Below, piece after piece: positions 2,888-36,652 of a DNA stretch of 64,000 nt (its first letter is position 1; the number at the start of each line of letters is the position of its first letter). The position numbers and the translations under genes are program-made. Below the pieces are notes generated by a model. The model was not told the origin of the DNA. It made no database searches and saw nothing but the letters and a program-made list of their open reading frames with translations. This stretch comes from Escherichia phage vB_EcoM_Goslar, in the sequence record NC_048170.1; one strand, written 5' to 3'.

Positions 2888-5800
2888 TACATAAACTCCT
2901 CGATGATGCAAATCCCATTAGCACCACGCCCACCAGGCTTAGCGGTTCCTGAGTAAGAGTTATCGTAAGCACCACCACCACCCGAACCAGGCGCGAGGCC
3001 GTTATGGGCGGTGCCAACACCAGCGCGACCGCCACCGCCCCAATATGACGCACCCCCACATCCACCGACGGCAATAGTACCGGCTTGTCCATCGCTACCG
3101 TCTCCGCCCGGAATGCGTATATCCCCGGTAGCAGGTGCGCCCCCATAGCCACCGCCAGTGTTTGTGACAGTTGTTTTTCCTGCGCCTTGCCCGCCGGGAG
3201 CAGTTAGCAGGGATGCAAATTTACTATCCCCACCCCCGTTCCCAGACGTCGCCCCAGAGCCACCGGAACCACCAGAACCAATTATAACAGAATAACTAGC
3301 AGCTGTTACCGTTATAACCGAAATTACTGTTCCGCCAGCTCCTCCCCCAGCACCAAAAAACGTTTCGCTGTTGGAATAAGCCTGACAGCCACCGCCGCCA
3401 CCGCCGCCACCGGTTATTGTTACTCTAATCCGTTTTGTTCCTTGTGTTGGAGTGTACGTCCCTGACGATGTGAAAACACGCATGTTCAGTAAACGTCCGA
3501 CATATCCGCTAGAATCGGCTAAACCAAGATCTTTAGCTGCTAACGTGATATTAGCTGTACCATCGAAAGGTTTACCGTTAATCGTGCGCGCAGTTTGCAA
3601 CTTCGTCGCCGTGGCTGCGTTCCCTGATGTATTCTGGTTCCCCGCGACGTTAACACCTGGTAGATTGATGTTCGCACTACCGTCGAAAGACACCCCACCA
3701 ATGGTGCGGGCTGTTTTCAGTTTTGTCGCCGTGGCGGCATTCCCCGTAGTGTCTTGGTTTCCTGCTGCGTTAACACCCGGCAGACTGATATTTGCCGTAC
3801 CATCGAACGCGACACCGCCAATCGTCCTTGCCGTTTGTAGTTTTGTCGCCGTGGCGGCATTACCGGTTGTGCTTTGGTTACCGGTGGTGTTTACCCCAGG
3901 TAGGCTGATATTTGCTGTTCCGTCAAATGAAACGCCGCCAATCGTCCTTGCCGTTTGCAACTTCGTTGCGGATGCCGCGTTCCCCGTGGTGTTTTGGTTA
4001 CCTGTTGCATTCACACCAGGGATACTATCCTTAGATGTATAGATCTGTGCCCATTCCGACCAATTCGAATCGGCTGCATCCCGACGAGAACGAAGATAGG
4101 CTGGCGCATGCGCCCCCGATGTACCAGACCATCCAATAAGGATCTCACCTTCACCTACTGCGGTTGCGCCTTTAAGATGAATAATATTGCCGTACGCTGT
4201 AGGGTATCCGTTATTGTACGCTTCATACATCTGGATACCCGTATTGCTACCCTGGGTCGCATTAGCTAAAGCGGTGACCCGTCCCTTGGAAGCGAGCACG
4301 TTAATGCTAAAGCTAATATCAGTTGTACCGTCAAAGGCGACCCCATTAATCCTCCGTGCCGTTTGGAGTTTCGTGGCAGTAGCCGCATTACCAGAAGTGC
4401 TCTGGTTACCCGCTTTGTTCACACCCGGTAAATCAATGTTGGCAGTCCCATCAAACGACACACCCCCTATGGTTCTCGCCGTCTGGAGTTTTGTTGCTGA
4501 ACCGGCGTTTCCGGAAGTGCTTTGATTGCCCGCGGCGTTGACACCAGGTAGGTTAATGCTAGCAGAACCATCAAAAGAAACTCCACCGATCGTAATGGTC
4601 GTTTGCAACTTCGTGGCTGTCGCAGCGTTACCCGTCGTATTCTGATTACCAGCTGCATTGACGCCAGGTAATGCGATATCAGTTGTACCGTCAAAAGCGA
4701 CACCACCGATTTTACGGGCGGTCTGTAGCTTGGTTGCGCTTCCTGCGTTTCCGCTGGTGTCTTGGTTTCCTGCAGCGTTAACACCCGGTAGACTGATGCT
4801 GACCGAACCATCGAAACTCACACCACCGATCGTAACAGCGGTTTTCAATTTCGTGGCAGTAGCTGCGTTACCGGTTGTATTTTGATTGCCTGTCGCATTA
4901 ACGCCCGGTAATGCAATATCCGCTGTTCCGTCAAAGGCAACGCCACCGATTCTACGTGCAGTTTGTAGCTTGGTCGCTGTAGCGGCATTACCGCTGGTAT
5001 TTTGCGTGCCTGCTTTATTTACACCGGGAAGATCGATGTTAGCAGAACCGTCGAAGCTAACGCCACCTATCGTTCTTGCCGTAGCAAGTTTAGCTGCTGT
5101 AGCAGCGGCGTTACCGACTTTTAACCATTCGCCCCATGGACCATCCTGGCCGTTCCATGATGCCGTTAAACTACGTACGTAAATATTGCCGGTACGTACA
5201 GTGTAACGTTGTGTTCCACCGAATTGCCCGGTTGGGAGCACTTCAATGTAACCTGCGGCGTTTGCTTCAGGGAAATTGTGGGCGACGTCCGCGTTCGTCG
5301 TTATTGGTTTAGACCAAATACCCACAGATGCTTCGACTGGACCGAAGGTATTCAGATTTGCGTCCGTCGCCATAGCACCATTAAATTTCAGGTACGTCTC
5401 TGGCGATAATCCGATCGTTTTAGCAAACGCAACTTTATCTACGATATCACTACCGTTATTCCCTGCCTGCAATGCTGTCTTAGCTGCCTTTATGGTTTCT
5501 GTCAATCCAAGATACAGTAAGACCGCATCAACGCTTCCTTTGCTTAGCAGATTCAGACCTGTTGACGTTACGTTAGTTAGCCCGATTTGGTTCCGTCCAG
5601 TAAAATAAGGGAGTTTATTCGCATCTGTTGTTAGGTTAGACCACGCGGTCAGCAACGCGTTCAACGGTTGTTTACCCGCCAACGCATTGGTTACTGTCGT
5701 TGCGAAATTAGGATCGTTCCCTAAAGCTTGAGCCAGCTCATTAAGCGTATTTAGCGCTTCTGGAGACGAGTCGATCAGCGATGCGATAGCACGCATCACA

Positions 5801-14507: not shown

Positions 14508-15005
14508 TTACGTGTGTCGTCGTTTACCAAAGAAAATGTGGCTATCTACCACGGTGATATTGGTAGCATGTTTTCTGAAATGTTTAGGGCGAAGATGTTT
14601 CGCGTTAAAGAATACGGCTCCTCGTGTTGGGTCGGCTTTATGGTAAGCCGCAATGTCAGTATAACGTAATGTTGCGACCTCTCGTGCTATTGCTCTTGCT
14701 CGCTCAAAAGCAGCACGATCGCGTATGACAATACGCCTTTGTTTTGTCCAGGGGAATTGACCTCTTTGCAGTACGACGTCTTTGACGTTCGTAGGGAATC
14801 GGTAGTCCATAGATCGATTATGTATTAAAAACGCCACGGAGTATTGCCCTTTTACAGATTCGCCTCTGGCTTCCATATACACAGCACATGCGACGATCTC
14901 TTTCCGGCAATCGATTCTAGGTCCTGCGTTCACTGATGCTTGACTGAACGGTGTAATAAGCAACATAACAAGCCCTAAAATCAACGTGTGTAAAATACCT
15001 TGCAT
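14508..15005 (-). CDS. SleB-like cell wall hydrolase with N-terminal signal peptide (candidate endolysin)
   Basis: Signal-like N-terminus MQGILHTLILGLVMLLITPFSQASV; CAVYMEARGES...AFLIHNR...QRGQFPW matches SleB/CwlJ-type hydrolase motifs as recalled. Confidence 0.6.
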   Translation of the reverse strand: MQGILHTLILGLVMLLITPFSQASVNAGPRIDCRKEIVACAVYMEARGESVKGQYSVAFLIHNRSMDYRFPTNVKDVVLQRGQFPWTKQRRIVIRDRAAFERARAIAREVATLRYTDIAAYHKADPTRGAVFFNAKHLRPKHFRKHATNITVVDSHIFFGKRRHT

Positions 15006-15257
15006 CTTAATAACCTCACGATAAGGTGCTGTCCACTGGCGTCTTGATAACGCATCCCGTCATCGGGTTGTTCTATTCAGCGGGCAGCAGGTTAGCGTCA
15101 GATGTTTGCCCGACATCCACGACAGAAATAAACGGTACTGAAAATACGGTCTCCTCTGGTTTGGCAATAAACATAACGTTGGATAACAGAACCCATTTCC
15201 CGCATCCAACGCGGTAAAGGTGTACATCGTTTGAAGTCATATAGTTTCTCAAAGATG

Positions 15258-15578
15258 TTAACCTCTACCGTCGAGCCATAGGTTGTATTTATCCCGAAGG
15301 TATGGCTCACGATAAATACGTCGATAGACTTGATGCGGTATAAACTTACAATTTACGAGTTCGTCGCTTAATTTATGCCGTCGCTCCATACCGTTGTGAA
15401 TACGACGTATCTCCCGGATATTAAAGGTTGTTTTATTCAAGAGAATAGACATAATGGCGGATCGATGATCCAGATTAAAGATCGCCATCACGCTTCGTAT
15501 CTCGCGTAAAACAACTTCTCTATCGACAAGGATGCGACTGTTGAGCTTAAGATTCTCCGTGATACCCATAACCTTCAT
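15258..15578 (-). CDS. hypothetical protein (start uncertain)
   Basis: ORF track 15258..15662 overlaps upstream gene by 116 nt; internal ATG at 15578 reduces overlap. Confidence 0.3.
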   Translation of the reverse strand: MKVMGITENLKLNSRILVDREVVLREIRSVMAIFNLDHRSAIMSILLNKTTFNIREIRRIHNGMERRHKLSDELVNCKFIPHQVYRRIYREPYLRDKYNLWLDGRG

Positions 15579-15918
15579 CCTCGACACGACGACACATCGG
15601 TAAAAATAAACACCAGCTTGTTGCACTGAGGATCGCCGTTGCGATGATATTTGCGATATCACTCAGTCGAGCATCGACCTGCCACATAACAAGCATAAAA
15701 AGAACGTACGCGAACCCATACACGACAAACCGTTTTATGTTACGTGTCGACCATGTACAAATATACAAAAGGGGAAGCTGCCCTACAACACAAACGATGG
15801 TTCGGATAACGTAATAAACGCGTTCCGTCGATGTTTCAAAATCGATACCCACAGCAAAAATCCCAATCAGTATAAAAGTGATAAAGCAATAGATTTTTGC
15901 GTATTCTTTTAAACTCAT
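15547..15918 (-). CDS. small membrane protein (123 aa, multiple hydrophobic segments); holin candidate
   Basis: Hydrophobic runs FITFILIGIFAVGI and FAYVLFMLVMW; near SleB-like hydrolase. Confidence 0.5.
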   Translation of the reverse strand: MSLKEYAKIYCFITFILIGIFAVGIDFETSTERVYYVIRTIVCVVGQLPLLYICTWSTRNIKRFVVYGFAYVLFMLVMWQVDARLSDIANIIATAILSATSWCLFLPMCRRVEDEGYGYHGES

Positions 15919-15934
15919 AACTTTTCCTGTTCGT

Positions 15935-16168
15935 TTATTTGCGTTTTCCTACATTCCTCAACAAGGAAACGATAACGAATACCGCTATCATCAAAAAGAC
16001 GAACCATAACCCTACGTTAATTCGGGCAGCCGGTTCATCTACCATGAAGAACATCATTCCACAAAACCCAATCGCCATCCATGCTAAGACCATTCCTGTT
16101 AATCCCCGTAGTAGCATATGTCCCATCATGAACTCCTTCTTACTTTTTCTGATAAAGCGACGATTCAA
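15935..16168 (-). CDS. small membrane protein (77 aa, two hydrophobic segments)
   Basis: LTGMVLAWMAIGFCGMMFFMV and LWFVFLMIAVFVIVSLL. Confidence 0.45.
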   Translation of the reverse strand: MNRRFIRKSKKEFMMGHMLLRGLTGMVLAWMAIGFCGMMFFMVDEPAARINVGLWFVFLMIAVFVIVSLLRNVGKRK

Positions 16169-16310
16169 ATTTTAGAAACACCGCTAACGCGAGTGCGATT
16201 AATAACGCACGTACCCACATACCTCCTTGACAACTGTTATACAACATAAAGACCAGAGCGATGCCGCCCATATGCAGGCGGCACTTATCGAACAGTGTTG
16301 GTTTATACAT
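16140..16310 (-). CDS. small membrane protein (56 aa), below ORF-track length cutoff
   Basis: Hand translation from ATG 16310: MYKPTLFDKCRLHMGGIALVFMLYNSCQGGMWVRALLIALALAVFLKFESSLYQKK, stop TAA at 16142..16140. Confidence 0.35.
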   Translation of the reverse strand: MYKPTLFDKCRLHMGGIALVFMLYNSCQGGMWVRALLIALALAVFLKFESSLYQKK

Positions 16311-16530
16311 AAGAGATTAAACGTTGAATGATTTTTACTTTACCTTTACCTGGGCCTTTCTTGCAGCGATTCAACAGACGGATACGGGTTCGAGTTACCA
16401 CGTCGCCATCATAATCAGCCTGGAACTGTGATAAAAAAGCAGGCTGTATCGGATCGACACCAGGATTGCTATAGAAAGGATTGAGACTTAAAAGAGAGTT
16501 AGCTGGAATCATCGTATTGTCCTTACTCAA
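16303..16530 (-). CDS. small basic protein with K-K-G-P-G-K-G-K motif (family member 1)
   Basis: ...RLLNRCKKGPGKGKVKI; motif shared with 34696..34893, 34920..35126, 35116..35262. Confidence 0.45.
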   Translation of the reverse strand: MSKDNTMIPANSLLSLNPFYSNPGVDPIQPAFLSQFQADYDGDVVTRTRIRLLNRCKKGPGKGKVKIIQRLISYV

Positions 16531-16881
16531 TTATTTACCCAGATAGAGGTATTCACCACCCTGAACAACACCGGTTGCCGGATCGACAAGTATACGAACC
16601 CGTGCGTAGGTCTTGAAAGAGGGGTTGAAAACTTCGAAGTCTGCCACTTTCAATTTCACGCTGGGGTTGGTCGGGTTCTTAACTCCAGGGAGTTCTTTCG
16701 GGGTACCGAAATCAACACCGCATTCTTCAAGGTCTGCTGGTGTCATGCTCTCCATGGCCATGTAGATTGCTTTTGCTTTATCGTAAACTTCTGGGCTATC
16801 CAGCAATCCAGCCTGCGCTGAACCGACAACACTACCGAACAGAATAGCAACAGCAACAAACAATTTAGTTAACGTTTTCAT
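16531..16881 (-). CDS. secreted protein (116 aa, signal peptide)
   Basis: MKTLTKLFVAVAILFGSVVGSAQA-GLLD signal-like N-terminus. Confidence 0.55.
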   Translation of the reverse strand: MKTLTKLFVAVAILFGSVVGSAQAGLLDSPEVYDKAKAIYMAMESMTPADLEECGVDFGTPKELPGVKNPTNPSVKLKVADFEVFNPSFKTYARVRILVDPATGVVQGGEYLYLGK

Positions 16882-16917
16882 GATATTTTCCTCGAAAGTA
16901 AAATGTTACAATACCTA

Positions 16918-17340
16918 TTAACGTACGGCCACTACACTGTTAGCGCATGCCTGAATATCATCGGTATTTACGATGATGGTTTCGTTAAACGCACGAATAC
17001 GCGCACGACGTGCTTCTTTAAGGCTGGCGATTGCATTAGCAGCTTGATCTGTATTCGCAAGGCTAATAACCGGGATCAAACGCATGTCAGGACTACAGAT
17101 ATTCAATGCTTGGTATACACGTCCATTGATTCCTACGGTATCAGACATCGGATAGTGCGCACGGCATTGAAATTGACCCATGACAACAAGCGAACGATCG
17201 GAGATACCAATCTGATAACGACCGTCTTCGCTGTAGGCGTAGCAGTTATTCCCACGAGCCATCCAGTTAGCCTGTGCTTGCGTGCTAACAAAAGCCAGGG
17301 TGGTGACGATAGCGAATACGATATTTTTGAACAGTTTCAT
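16918..17340 (-). CDS. secreted protein (signal peptide)
   Basis: Start placed at ATG 17340 (MKLFKNIVFAIVTTLAFVSTQAQA-NW); ORF track gives longer 16918..17409. Confidence 0.55.
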   Translation of the reverse strand: MKLFKNIVFAIVTTLAFVSTQAQANWMARGNNCYAYSEDGRYQIGISDRSLVVMGQFQCRAHYPMSDTVGINGRVYQALNICSPDMRLIPVISLANTDQAANAIASLKEARRARIRAFNETIIVNTDDIQACANSVVAVR

Positions 17341-17398
17341 GATAAAGATCCTTATTGAAATAAAATCGGTATAAAGGCCCCCATTTAGGGGGACCTGA

Positions 17399-17716
17399 TT
17401 AGTTTGCACGTAAGAAATGACCCAGAACCGTTACGATTGGAAACAGCCCCGTAACAGTATTATCACCCGAAAACATCATCATTGTTCCGTTAACGGTGAT
17501 GAAACGGATGTCGGTTGCGGACCCATCGATAGCGACAAAACGCATCGAGTTCGGTGGAAGGTCCTCAACCACTTCCACGAGGTACTCGCGATTATCAAAG
17601 GCTTCTTTAACACGACGCATGAAACGAATCAAGGTTCCTTCCGCGTCAGCTTCCAAATGACCTAAGATATCGCGATTATTACGAATAGCAAATACAGCCA
17701 TTTTAAACATACTCAT
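17399..17716 (-). CDS. hypothetical protein (105 aa)
   Basis: ORF track; preceded by conserved 20-nt motif. Confidence 0.45.
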   Translation of the reverse strand: MSMFKMAVFAIRNNRDILGHLEADAEGTLIRFMRRVKEAFDNREYLVEVVEDLPPNSMRFVAIDGSATDIRFITVNGTMMMFSGDNTVTGLFPIVTVLGHFLRAN

Positions 17717-34361: not shown

Positions 34362-34708
34362 GCCATATTCTCCGTTATATGCTTTAAACTGTTACGTATA
34401 CTTTTCAATCGACGATTAAATCCGGAACGATAACATTTCCGTACAACCCTTGGCGCTCGCGCTTTATTCGCCTGGTGAAGCTGTTCATTCACCTGCGACG
34501 CTATACGTAAACGTTCTAATAAAGACCTCAACCGAACGACAACCAACGGTTGTTCTTTCACCTTCTCTAGTTTGAGTAAAGAGTCAATATGAAACTTTAT
34601 ATCGATAATCTGATTCCTGTTTTTGCGGTACTGATGAATATACCAGCATCGACGAAAATAGGTGATGCTAAGCATAGGGTGGATCCTCTTCAACGCTATC
34701 TCCAACAA
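34358..34708 (-). CDS. small basic protein (116 aa)
   Basis: ORF track; Arg/Lys-rich. Confidence 0.4.
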   Translation of the reverse strand: MLEIALKRIHPMLSITYFRRCWYIHQYRKNRNQIIDIKFHIDSLLKLEKVKEQPLVVVRLRSLLERLRIASQVNEQLHQANKARAPRVVRKCYRSGFNRRLKSIRNSLKHITENMA

Positions 34709-34893
34709 TACATCGGATTAGGTGCTTTATGGCATTTATAAATACCTACTTTCTTCTGTCTACCTTTACCTGGGCCTCGTTTAACGCGTTTGTTATAAAC
34801 ACGATCCAAATATCGAGTGGCGATAAATCGGGATGAATACACCGGGTCGATATATTCTAGCGTACCTGCTTCTGTCACTTCGAGACATTGCAT
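34696..34893 (-). CDS. small basic protein with K-R-G-P-G-K-G-R motif (family member 2)
   Basis: ...YNKRVKRGPGKGRQKKV. Confidence 0.4.
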   Translation of the reverse strand: MQCLEVTEAGTLEYIDPVYSSRFIATRYLDRVYNKRVKRGPGKGRQKKVGIYKCHKAPNPMYCWR

Positions 34894-34919: not shown

Positions 34920-35126
34920 TCAGTCCAACATAAGCCACGGCATCGCTTTCGCGATAGAATCCACCGCAGCATTTGCGATCCTTCGTTCAGTCGTTGGTAC
35001 CACATGCGCAACAAACCGTTTCCCTTTATTGCAACCTTTCTTGTGTTTTCCTTTGACTAAACGAACACCGATCATGTCGCTGATAACATGATTTAGTATG
35101 TGGCGCTGTAGAGAATTAATCATCAC
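34920..35126 (-). CDS. small basic protein with degenerate K-K-G-x-x-K-G-K motif (family member 3)
   Basis: ...LVKGKHKKGCNKGKRF. Confidence 0.35.
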   Translation of the reverse strand: MMINSLQRHILNHVISDMIGVRLVKGKHKKGCNKGKRFVAHVVPTTERRIANAAVDSIAKAMPWLMLD

Positions 35127-35262
35127 TTTTACTCCAGGCTGAGAAGATTCTCGGTTTTAGTTCTATCTGTCCACATATCCAGGTGTATCTCCATTTACCT
35201 TTACGAGGACCTTTCTTATTTTTAACACCTATCAGAATACGGTAGGGGTACGACCAAGTCAT
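35116..35262 (-). CDS. small basic protein (48 aa) with K-K-G-P-R-K-G-K motif (family member 4), below ORF-track cutoff
   Basis: Hand translation from ATG 35262: MTWSYPYRILIGVKNKKGPRKGKWRYTWICGQIELKPRIFSAWSKSDD, stop at 35118..35116. Confidence 0.3.
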   Translation of the reverse strand: MTWSYPYRILIGVKNKKGPRKGKWRYTWICGQIELKPRIFSAWSKSDD

Positions 35263-35291: not shown

Positions 35292-35618
35292 TTAATGCAG
35301 TTGCTTCTTAAAACCTAATTTAAGAAGCGTCATTCTCTTGTCGATGGTATCTAATGCTTCCAGCAAGGATTCACGCTGTTCTTTCGTAAGCATATCGACG
35401 CGTAGACGTTCGTTAATTTCTGCTTTAAGCTGTATAGGAAGGGTTTGTGTAAGTATGCTATCAGCCTCCATCTCGTAACTATTTTTCGGTATGGGTAATG
35501 CTTCAGTAACACCAGTGAGATAAAAACCGATAGTGGTTACTCGTTCATCCATTGCTTCTAACAGTTCAGAACTTACTTCATCCACGATAGTCCTCCGTAT
35601 TAGGGTGGGCGTACCCAC
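35292..35618 (-). CDS. hypothetical protein (start uncertain)
   Basis: ORF track; first codon is GTG inside a hairpin; alternative ATG at 35552. Confidence 0.4.
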   Translation of the reverse strand: MGTPTLIRRTIVDEVSSELLEAMDERVTTIGFYLTGVTEALPIPKNSYEMEADSILTQTLPIQLKAEINERLRVDMLTKEQRESLLEALDTIDKRMTLLKLGFKKQLH

Positions 35619-35632
35619 CCTCAGTTGTTAAT

Positions 35633-36652
35633 TTACACCGCCACCTTAGCCTTGATAGCGGGGTGTGATTGATATCCGACGAACACAAAGTCTTCGTAAC
35701 GGTAATCCGTAATACTTTCTGGTTTACGTACGATTGTTAGCTTCGGTAATGGATACGGCTCACGACTAAGTTGTTCTTTAACCTGTTCGAAGTGGTTGTG
35801 ATAGATGTGACAATCTCCACCCGTCCACACGAACTCACCAACGTCCATATTCAGCTGTTGGGCAAGCATGTGTGTCAGCAGTGAATATGATGCGATGTTA
35901 AAGGGAGTCCCTAAAACTGTGTCCTGTGATCTTGCGAGTAGCATGCATGATAAGGCGCGTGTCGGTACGTTGTGTGTATTCAACCAAAGTTCCGTTTCAC
36001 TGTGTCGTACATCATCCGTAACCCACTGGGTTCTTAATACGTCGTTGCGTTGAACATAATCAACACGTTCATCGATCGTGAGCTCGTGGGTATAGAACTG
36101 ATAGAAACTGTGGCATGCGGGAAGCGCCATATCGTCTAAATCACCTACGTTCCATGCGCTAACGATGATCCGTCGAGAATCAGGGTCTTCTTTAAGCTGA
36201 CGCATCACGTTTGCGATTTGGTCGTGGTGTTTAACATACAAGAGATGTTTGACCATACCGGCGTCAACAACACCGCAATACTCATAGCCGCGTTGCATCA
36301 ACTCACGAGTACGTTCTGTATCGTGCGGAACAACCACTTTGTAGTCGATCCATTCCCGCCATTGTTTGCCGTAAATCGGTCCTAGATTCCCTTCTTCGTC
36401 AGCCCATTCATTCCAGATACGAACACCGTTATCTTGAAGATAAGCAACGTTTGTGTCGCCGTTAAGAAACCAGAGCAGTTCGTGGATAACGCTCTTAAGG
36501 TGAATCTTCTTGGTGGTTACCAGCGGGAATCCTTTCTTCAAGTCAAAACGCATCTGACGCCCGAATACGGAACGGGTCCCGGTGCCTGTACGATCAGCTT
36601 TATCGCGACCGTTATCCATGATGTCTTGCAAAAGGTCCAAATACTGTTTCAT
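35633..36652 (-). CDS. thyA: thymidylate synthase (ThyA family) with two insertions
   Basis: [15 protein letters not shown]...[59 protein letters not shown] (catalytic Cys), [25 protein letters not shown]; 339 aa versus about 264 aa for bacterial ThyA. Confidence 0.9.

Follow-up and report, generated by a model that had tools for sequence, protein, structure and literature searches.

Four short open reading frames (ORFs) on the minus strand of the window, i.e., the whole 64-kb stretch of DNA that was analysed, are real, conserved genes under purifying selection. They encode small basic proteins of 48, 67, 65, and 69 aa (termed A48, B67, C65, and D69, respectively) and are laid out as a tandem trio at 34.7–35.3 kb (A48, B67, and C65) plus a single dispersed copy at 16.3 kb (D69). 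As judged from the sequences, the conserved working part of these proteins appears to be a lysine-rich loop, [KR]-x-[KR]-[KR]-G-[P/C]-x-K-G-[KR]. The four are tentatively read as small nucleic-acid-binding "finger" proteins, with a confidence that falls somewhat short of even.

The first-pass annotation had placed the ORFs at 16303–16530, 34696–34893, 34920–35126, and 35116–35262, and all four are indeed present there, each on the minus strand. Two of the starts, however, require correction. The true start of B67 is the ATG at 35123, not 35126 (67 aa according to public pipelines), and that of D69 is the ATG at 16512, not 16530; the 69-aa orthologs of D69 all begin with MIP, and its orthologs as a whole (31 clusters, 41–96 aa) all start at the ATG equivalent to 16512. 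A48 (35116–35262, 48 aa, pI 10.2), B67 (34920–35123, 67 aa, pI 10.7), C65 (34696–34893, 65 aa, pI 9.8), and D69 (16303–16512, 69 aa, pI 10.0), all on the minus strand, have Shine-Dalgarno sequences at proper spacing: a strong AGGAGG, GGAG, GAGAGG, and AAGGA, respectively, the last lying 7 nt before the ATG. The A48 stop codon overlaps the B67 start.

Public pipelines call genes of 48, 67, 65, and 69 aa on many contigs of ~240 kb, which, together with pI values of 9.8–10.7, confirms the earlier description of these ORFs as real and as encoding small basic proteins. For comparison, the median pI of the larger ORFs in the window is 6.6; the net charge of the four proteins ranges from +6 to +9. 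In the public collection, 106 blocks index a sequence identical to A48, which is a called gene on 23 of the 23 contigs inspected. A48, B67, and C65 are all kept in each of the 17 related loci whose DNA was compared, where the neighbouring 108-aa protein shows 65% to 98% identity. Regarding selection, dN/dS ratios computed by the Nei-Gojobori method mostly lie between 0.04 and 0.46 across the four genes. Ranges are 0.0–0.46 for A48, 0.05–0.37 for B67, and 0.13–0.38 in 7 of 8 comparisons for C65, with a low-divergence outlier of 1.03; for the C-terminal 38 codons of D69, compared with the related locus L154, dN is 0.088 and dS is 0.409.

Each protein carries the motif once, as KKGPGKGK in D69 (16339–16362), KRGPGKGR in C65 (34759–34782), KKGCNKGK in B67 (35019–35042), and KKGPRKGK in A48 (35194–35217), all encoded on the minus strand. 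The near-identical core [KR]-[KR]-G-P-G/R-K-G-[KR] ascribed to all four copies therefore describes three of them, whereas the copy at 34920–35126 has Cys-Asn at the central positions. Basic residues at −2 and −4 of the motif recur in every group. Translation of the window in all six frames shows the relaxed pattern [KR]G..[KR]G[KR] in these four ORFs only. The pattern [KR][KR]G..[KR]G[KR] is observed 4 times. Shuffling the nucleotides (200 replicates) yields 0.08 occurrences on average, and shuffling the residues within ORFs (500 replicates) yields 0.036; the strict 8-mer has zero occurrences in both shuffle sets, the pattern having been set post hoc, from the data. A search of the window with an HMM of the 28-residue hairpin module found no degenerate extra members.

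As for the codons, one of the differences between copies that had been reported as synonymous (ggt versus cgt) exchanges Gly for Arg. Among orthologs, however, the motif codons do vary synonymously (GGC/GGT/GGA, CCA/CCG/CCT/CCC, and AAA/AAG) with the residues fixed. The 33 nt on either side of the 24-nt core have 12–33% identity between copies, which equals the random level and thus speaks against any longer DNA repeat. Unrelated flanks, synonymous motif codons, and dN/dS ratios together uphold the original argument for conservation at the protein level; the longer non-coding repeat, an alternative raised at the same time, is not found.

Nearly all long ORFs of the window lie on the minus strand, and their products include a tail fibre, tail proteins, an NAD-dependent DNA ligase, an exonuclease, and helicases, as well as two multisubunit-RNAP beta/beta'-like subunits. 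This gene content is the signature of a phiKZ-like jumbo phage, and the jumbo phage origin presumed at the outset is thereby borne out. The nearest RNAP subunit in a collection of 50,697 phage records is ~32% identical. Orthologs of the small proteins reside on many metagenome contigs of 235–249 kb, and also in assemblies filed under E. coli, Salmonella Newport, and Enterobacter hormaechei, which makes the source a common lineage of enterobacterial jumbo phages. Megablast reported no near-identical DNA among INPHARED phages for the 16.3-kb and trio regions, and no match among PLSDB plasmids and complete E. coli genomes for the region at 33.7–36.7 kb. No tRNA or Rfam elements were found in the window.

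The trio follows the thymidylate synthase gene thyA (35633–36652, minus strand; PF00303 on the 339-aa product), with the order thyA, a GC-rich stem-loop, an acidic 108-aa ORFan (35292–35618, minus strand), the trio, and then other ORFans; ligase, exonuclease, and helicase genes occupy the wider region. A GTDB genome scan with the 108-aa protein returned nothing, and on other thyA-bearing viral contigs, whose ThyA is 29–47% identical, motif ORFs are absent within 4 kb. The surroundings of D69 consist of a signal-peptide protein upstream (16531–16881), holin-like ORFs with multiple transmembrane segments downstream (15547–15918 and 15935–16168, minus strand), and, ~1.3 kb away, an endolysin (14508–15005, minus strand; PF07486 Hydrolase_2, E = 3.9e-16). 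Relatives keep the order signal-peptide protein, D69, holin-like ORFs, and Hydrolase_2 endolysin. A 7-bp GC stem-loop (16262–16283), which a 5-pair site overlaps, comes after the D69 stop codon.

In D69, the N-terminal half is variable, disordered, and neutral to acidic, and the C-terminal 38 aa are nearly invariant (ADYDGD-x6-IRLLNRxKKGPGKGKVKIIQRLISYV). The acidic element ADYDG[D/E/N] at 16402–16419 (minus strand) is invariant except for its last position and provides the sole DxDGD in the six frames. Its interpretation as a fragment of the RNAP-type NADFDGD/DPBB element was rejected, with the third Asp varying (D/E/N) and no RNA_pol Pfam match; since this Asp varies, a catalytic triad at ADYDGD seems unlikely as well. 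In B67, the C-terminal AMPWLMLD is invariant. Weak matches of B67 to DUF7439 are reported by Pfam (E = 0.03–0.14), and a literature search on DUF7439 and the motif strings found nothing relevant.

Comparison with Pfam, PHROGs, and NCBIfam yields no significant match for any of the four proteins. A HMMER search of 1.84 billion representative proteins with a profile of the four paralogs and their orthologs returned the D69, B67, and C65 clusters of the same lineage and otherwise two spurious repeat proteins; relatives outside the lineage are undetectable. In profile searches of the PDB, D69, A48, and C65 gave nothing below E = 0.7.

The AT-hook, which binds the minor groove of AT-rich DNA, is defined by G-R-P (usually R-G-R-P) flanked by Lys/Arg. 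The suggestion that the motif is AT-hook-like (PF02178 / SM00384) fails, as none of the four proteins contains this core, their own cores reading GPGKG, GPGKG, GCNKG, and GPRKG, and no AT-hook Pfam model matches. Both are short, basic elements containing Gly and Pro, but here Lys residues flank G-P-x-K-G, and whereas the AT-hook is an extended disordered segment, the phage motif is predicted to lie between beta-strands.

The only PDB matches of the family profile are to the NEIL3 GRF zinc fingers (RKDGENKGRQFYA / KIGPNNGKNFFV), with non-significant E-values of 0.73 and 1.8, and it is precisely the K-x-G-[PE]-N-x-G-[RK]-x-F hairpins of these fingers that are aligned. A GRF domain is a three-stranded structure, stabilised by zinc, that binds single-stranded DNA, and residues just before the hairpin turn make contact with the DNA (PMC9561275). 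The turn K-[KD]-G-[PE]-N-x-G-[RK]-x-F of zf-GRF domains (APE2, NEIL3, and TOP3A) has look-alikes in B67 (HKKGCNKGKRFVAH) and in pelagiphage KKGPNKGK. The four zinc ligands (C/H) that bracket the hairpin in GRF fingers, however, are not conserved in any of the four groups: in orthologs, the motif Cys of B67 is replaced by Tyr or Val and its His41 by Q/R/Y/N, Cys30 of A48 by Tyr, and Cys54 of C65 by Tyr or Ser. B67 N-K-G-K-R-F resembles the GRF G-R-x-F in a shifted register, whereas the other three proteins have no Phe at that spacing, and the distance from the turn to the aromatic residue differs in A48, C65, and D69. Moreover, hmmscan reports no match to zf-GRF (PF06839) even at E ≤ 10. Because conserved zinc ligands are absent, the four proteins are not GRF fingers, an identity that was also rejected on the non-significant profile match, and the resemblance is best viewed as a motif-level analogy.

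HU/IHF beta-ribbon arms carry R-x-G-R-N-P-x-T-G at the tip. By analogy only, they would share with the phage proteins a two-stranded basic beta-ribbon, a Gly/Pro tip, and a small basic protein context; in contrast, the phage proteins have no similarity to them in sequence or profile (no PF00216 match) and no HU-type dimerisation body, are too short, and have another predicted topology. As for B67 alone, its profile gives borderline matches to glutamyl-tRNA synthetase (GluRS) chains in the PDB (E = 0.042 and 0.24, among six PDB searches). The match covers the strand-helix after the HIGH region (GGxFxLRIEDTDxxRS...WLGL), ending in ...AM.WL.LD, with B67 residues 33–67 aligned to GluRS 54–87 and 41–75; among the identical residues are G, F, V, R, A, D, I, M, W, and L as well as the closing L-D. 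B67 was rejected as a glutamyl-tRNA synthetase, having no HIGH motif and no tRNA-synt_1c (PF00749) match and aligning over a 35-aa fragment, and the similarity is regarded as a lead suggested by the alignment. RiPP precursor and toxin-antitoxin readings were rejected too, since no modifying enzymes are encoded nearby and every member is basic.

A degenerate DNA scan of IMG/VR for KKGPxKGK reported at least 118 loci. About 70 of the 118 matches listed belong to one family of 51–82 aa proteins ending in ...EVEIGATGTQ[RK]YRIKKGPNKGK[IV][LV]. This family is phrog_32989, which pelagiphage proteins match at 6e-8 to 6e-16; its members of 54–59 aa are found in HTVC106P, HTVC024P, HTVC027P, Kolga, and HTVC008M, i.e., in podo-, sipho-, and myo-type Pelagibacter phages with varied genomic contexts. 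Similarly to the window proteins, they are small and basic (pI 10.2); KKGP[N/G]KGK is invariant among them, and position −4 is basic. On the other hand, their motif sits at the extreme C-terminus with only 2–6 residues after it, the rest of the protein (N-terminal helix and EVEIGATGT) is unrelated, and hosts and phage types differ. According to hhalign, phrog_32989 and D69 align with a probability of 83% (E = 8.4e-6) over 22 columns of the motif region only. The four window proteins obtain no match to the phrog_32989 profile at E ≤ 1, and the profile search of 1.84 billion proteins leaves the jumbo-phage proteins and the pelagiphage family unconnected.

Among the other matches listed, KKGPRKGK was seen by eye between strand-like flanks in HNH-endonuclease-like proteins (L061, L105, and L107), and the motif was likewise noted with strand-like flanks in portal-like proteins. 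In two IMG/VR contigs (L157 and L158), KKGCNKGK, again by eye, directly precedes NUMOD3-like WNKGK-x2-SEET repeats. The matches outside phrog_32989 look like background. Taken at the sequence level, the octapeptide recurs in small phage proteins and seemingly in loops of DNA enzymes, and its presence in a small protein of unrelated pelagiphages hints at a reusable motif. In the boldest form of this idea, which is considered clearly unlikely, KKG[P/C]xKGK would act as a portable cationic finger, GRF-like but free of zinc, and would mark out a new class of mini-proteins with which phages bind nucleic acids or host factors. Unrelated phages, namely an enterobacterial jumbo phage lineage (4–5 copies by duplication) and podo-, sipho-, and myo-type pelagiphages, would have recruited it independently or exchanged it, with roles in host takeover or genome handling.

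AlphaFold2 models were run separately on B67 and D69 and have low to moderate mean pLDDT values of 64 and 56, respectively. For D69 a beta-hairpin is predicted at residues 42–51 and 58–67 (pLDDT 67–81 there) with GPGKGK at its tip. The B67 topology is helix, strand, basic loop, strand, helix, and KKGCNKGK occupies the loop between the two predicted strands. With low to moderate confidence, the models thus place the motif at the tip of a two-stranded beta-hairpin in both proteins. Fold searches with the models returned no match.

The nucleic-acid-binding finger is favoured because of the charge, the predicted geometry, the DNA-binding contexts of the look-alikes, and the replication-gene neighbourhood of the trio. 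Under this reading, the cationic hairpin finger would touch DNA or RNA at the phosphate backbone or in a groove; the trio would act beside the replication and nucleotide-metabolism genes, with D69 as a dispersed copy. Several points count against it. Searches of Pfam, PHROGs, and NCBIfam link none of the proteins significantly to a family that binds DNA or RNA, the GRF match is non-significant with no conserved zinc ligands, and the two models are of low to moderate confidence and gave no fold match. D69 adjoins lysis genes, not DNA-metabolism genes. The basic loop could equally bind acidic proteins or membranes, and the placement of the pelagiphage motif at the extreme C-terminus implies that a hairpin tip is not obligatory.

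If the loop is indeed a nucleic-acid-binding finger, it would be among the smallest such modules known and would offer an entry point to the early events of a widespread enterobacterial jumbo phage lineage; if it is just another basic loop, the four genes form an ordinary lineage-specific paralog set. Short ORFans dominate the genomes of jumbo phages, and annotation pipelines ignore them or label them hypothetical. Here, four to five such mini-proteins are conserved under purifying selection with an eight-residue cationic loop as their sole common feature. It is this unannotated set with its distinctive motif that is new; nothing found so far points to an unusual mechanism.

The interpretation that competes most directly with nucleic-acid binding treats the motif as a short linear peptide that docks on host or phage proteins at an acidic surface, with a polymerase, ribosome, chaperone, or capsid/packaging component as suggested targets, which would make the four proteins adaptors or inhibitors. 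The 8–10 residue motif alone is conserved across otherwise dissimilar scaffolds, and the unrelated phrog_32989 proteins ending in KKGPNKGK fit a portable interaction motif. Most docking motifs, however, have a hydrophobic anchor, which this one does not, and both AlphaFold2 models embed it between strands, not in a disordered tail; docking is held to be rather unlikely. An action on membranes, with the proteins being cationic, partly amphipathic hairpin peptides and D69 an accessory lysis factor, draws on their basic character and on the conserved position of D69 between the signal-peptide protein and the holin-like ORFs, near the endolysin. Disruptin-type cationic peptides replace spanins, and D69 is compared with them by analogy. 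This reading is nevertheless improbable: the other three copies belong to the thyA/replication region, transmembrane segments and signal peptides are absent from all four proteins, D69 begins with a variable half of neutral to acidic character, and on direct reading the strand residues are not cleanly amphipathic.

Homing endonucleases commonly occur near thymidylate synthase genes, and the trio beside thyA might accordingly be an exapted or decaying DNA-binding remnant of such an enzyme (repeated basic, NUMOD-like modules) broken into three ORFs. One motif per ORF in three adjacent ORFs and the KKGCNKGK directly before NUMOD3-like repeats in the two IMG/VR contigs would suit this history. However, each ORF has its own Shine-Dalgarno sequence, start, and fixed length, and dN/dS stays well below 1 in relatives with dS up to ~0.8. 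Pfam profiles for NUMOD3 (PF07460), GIY-YIG (PF01541), and HNH give no match in the four proteins even at E ≤ 10, and neither a GIY-YIG or H-N-H pattern nor a catalytic motif is seen in them, which renders the remnant highly improbable. As for chance ORFs or a non-coding DNA repeat devoid of protein function, the sequences are very short (48–69 aa) and unannotated, as that reading would expect. It is effectively refuted, however: selection is purifying, motif codons vary synonymously, the DNA flanking the copies is unrelated, ORF boundaries are conserved, and the genes are called on many contigs.

Calling the four proteins a family, as was originally done, claims more than the comparisons bear out. 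All four share the motif, the basic residue at −4, and beta-strand-like flanks; each group has, 8–10 positions upstream of the motif, an Arg and, directly after it, an aliphatic or aromatic residue, and hydrophobic residues alternate on both sides of the motif. Against this common motif and these few flanking features, leave-one-group-out HMMs recover D69 (E = 0.0015) and B67 (E = 0.008) weakly, and C65 and A48 effectively not (E = 3 for one, the other not found), while flank-only profiles give no signal. In profile-profile comparisons, A48 and B67 align to the other groups across the motif alone. C65 and D69 align according to hhalign with a probability of 74% (E = 2.7e-5) over 35 columns, a region that takes in an upstream P-x-[FY]-[LS]-S-[QR]-F element. 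C65 is therefore a likely paralog of D69, the only pair in which similarity appears to extend beyond the motif.

The sequences of relatives show that duplication is ongoing. In L026, the relative that has diverged most, a fifth member lies between B67 and C65, 50 aa long with KKGCNKGK and a net charge of +13. In the 96-aa variants of D69, the DxDxD...IRLLxRRK unit occurs twice within the protein, and the first copy is degenerate. The simplest history would be tandem duplication and one dispersal, with rapid divergence outside the loop.

According to the matches in other phages, the KKGPxKGK-type motif of the small basic proteins is found in phrog_32989 proteins, where it takes the form of an invariant C-terminal KKGP[N/G]KGK. 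These proteins, 54-59 aa long (up to 82 aa), are common to podo-, sipho- and myo-type pelagiphages (HTVC106P, HTVC024P, HTVC027P, Kolga, and HTVC008M), and among the matches listed they are also represented by IMG/VR loci within L037-L149, such as L045 (2531-2698) and L086 (550-723). The HTVC008M ORF that matches phrog_32989 carries no annotation. As for the other listed matches, three IMG/VR loci (L061, L105, and L107) have KKGPRKGK flanked by strand-like segments, GYGKMNMRF-KKGPRKGK-VKSALAHR, so placed that the motif forms an apparent expanded turn; judged by eye, their proteins look like HNH_3-type endonucleases. In two further loci, L157 and L158, KKGCNKGK is immediately followed by WNKGK-x2-SEET repeats, which on visual inspection resemble NUMOD3, and the proteins themselves look like putative homing endonucleases.

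Regarding D69, the family member near 16.3 kb, its ADYDG[D/E/N] element (16402-16419, minus strand) is invariant and contains the sole DxDGD of the window. It resembles the metal-binding motif of RNAP beta' (NADFDGD) and RdRP (DbDGD); this likeness is probably coincidental, since the third Asp varies (D/E/N). In some relatives D69 is 83-96 aa long and the DxDxD-V-x4-IRLLxRRK unit is internally duplicated (proteins P0025-P0029 and P0031; loci L151-L153, 3001-3291), with KNSDNY in place of the KKGPGK loop in the first copy.

The region around D69 (14508-17409) looks like a lysis cassette: 14508-15005 encodes a Hydrolase_2 endolysin, the ORFs at 15547-15918 and 15935-16168 are holin-like and multi-TM, and 16531-16881 and 16918-17409 each encode a signal-peptide protein. 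No clear candidate for a lipobox spanin was apparent in this interval. Directly after the D69 stop lies a GC-rich stem-loop (16262-16283, minus strand; TGCCGCC-tgcatat-GGGCGGCA), and another directly follows the stop of thyA (35598-35615, minus strand; GGGTGGGtacgCCCACCC). Both are missing a clear U-tract; possible roles are as terminators typical of the lineage or as hairpins for RNA processing. The thymidylate synthase encoded by thyA (35633-36652) is 339 aa long, compared with ~264 aa for the E. coli enzyme, which implies insertions. Among its viral homologs, one relative reaches 96% identity, and the next closest have at most 47%.

As for B67, the member with KKGCNKGK, its C-terminal half (residues 33-67, 34920-35024; KGKRFVAHVVPTTERRIANAAVDSIAKAMPWLMLD) aligns to the glutamyl-tRNA synthetase strand-helix GGxFxLRIEDTD...WLGL, with E-values of 0.042 and 0.24 against PDB; Pfam did not confirm the likeness. 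In L026, the most divergent relative, an extra fifth family member (3706-3858, 50 aa, ...FKTAKYKKGCNKGKVYTIRVFKPR) with a net charge of +13 is placed between B67 and its neighbour C65. A 79-aa protein from one contig, P0042, is a fusion in which the N-terminal ~50 residues from a B67 ortholog are joined to a tail (...GIYRSGVFVQIYHHSIFGSRL). This tail matches an alternative-frame ORF that overlaps B67/C65 (34793-35014) and stays open in the 4 relatives listed for it; the fused protein appears to be a variant produced by a deletion or a frameshift.

The jumbo phage lineage to which the window belongs (related contigs L001, L017-L032, and L151-L156) has genomes of ~235-249 kb with multisubunit RNAP genes, for which the closest phage match in the August 2025 INPHARED collection is only ~32% identical. 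The lineage is abundant in metagenome assemblies, and assemblies that bear the labels E. coli, Salmonella Newport, and Enterobacter hormaechei contain it as well.
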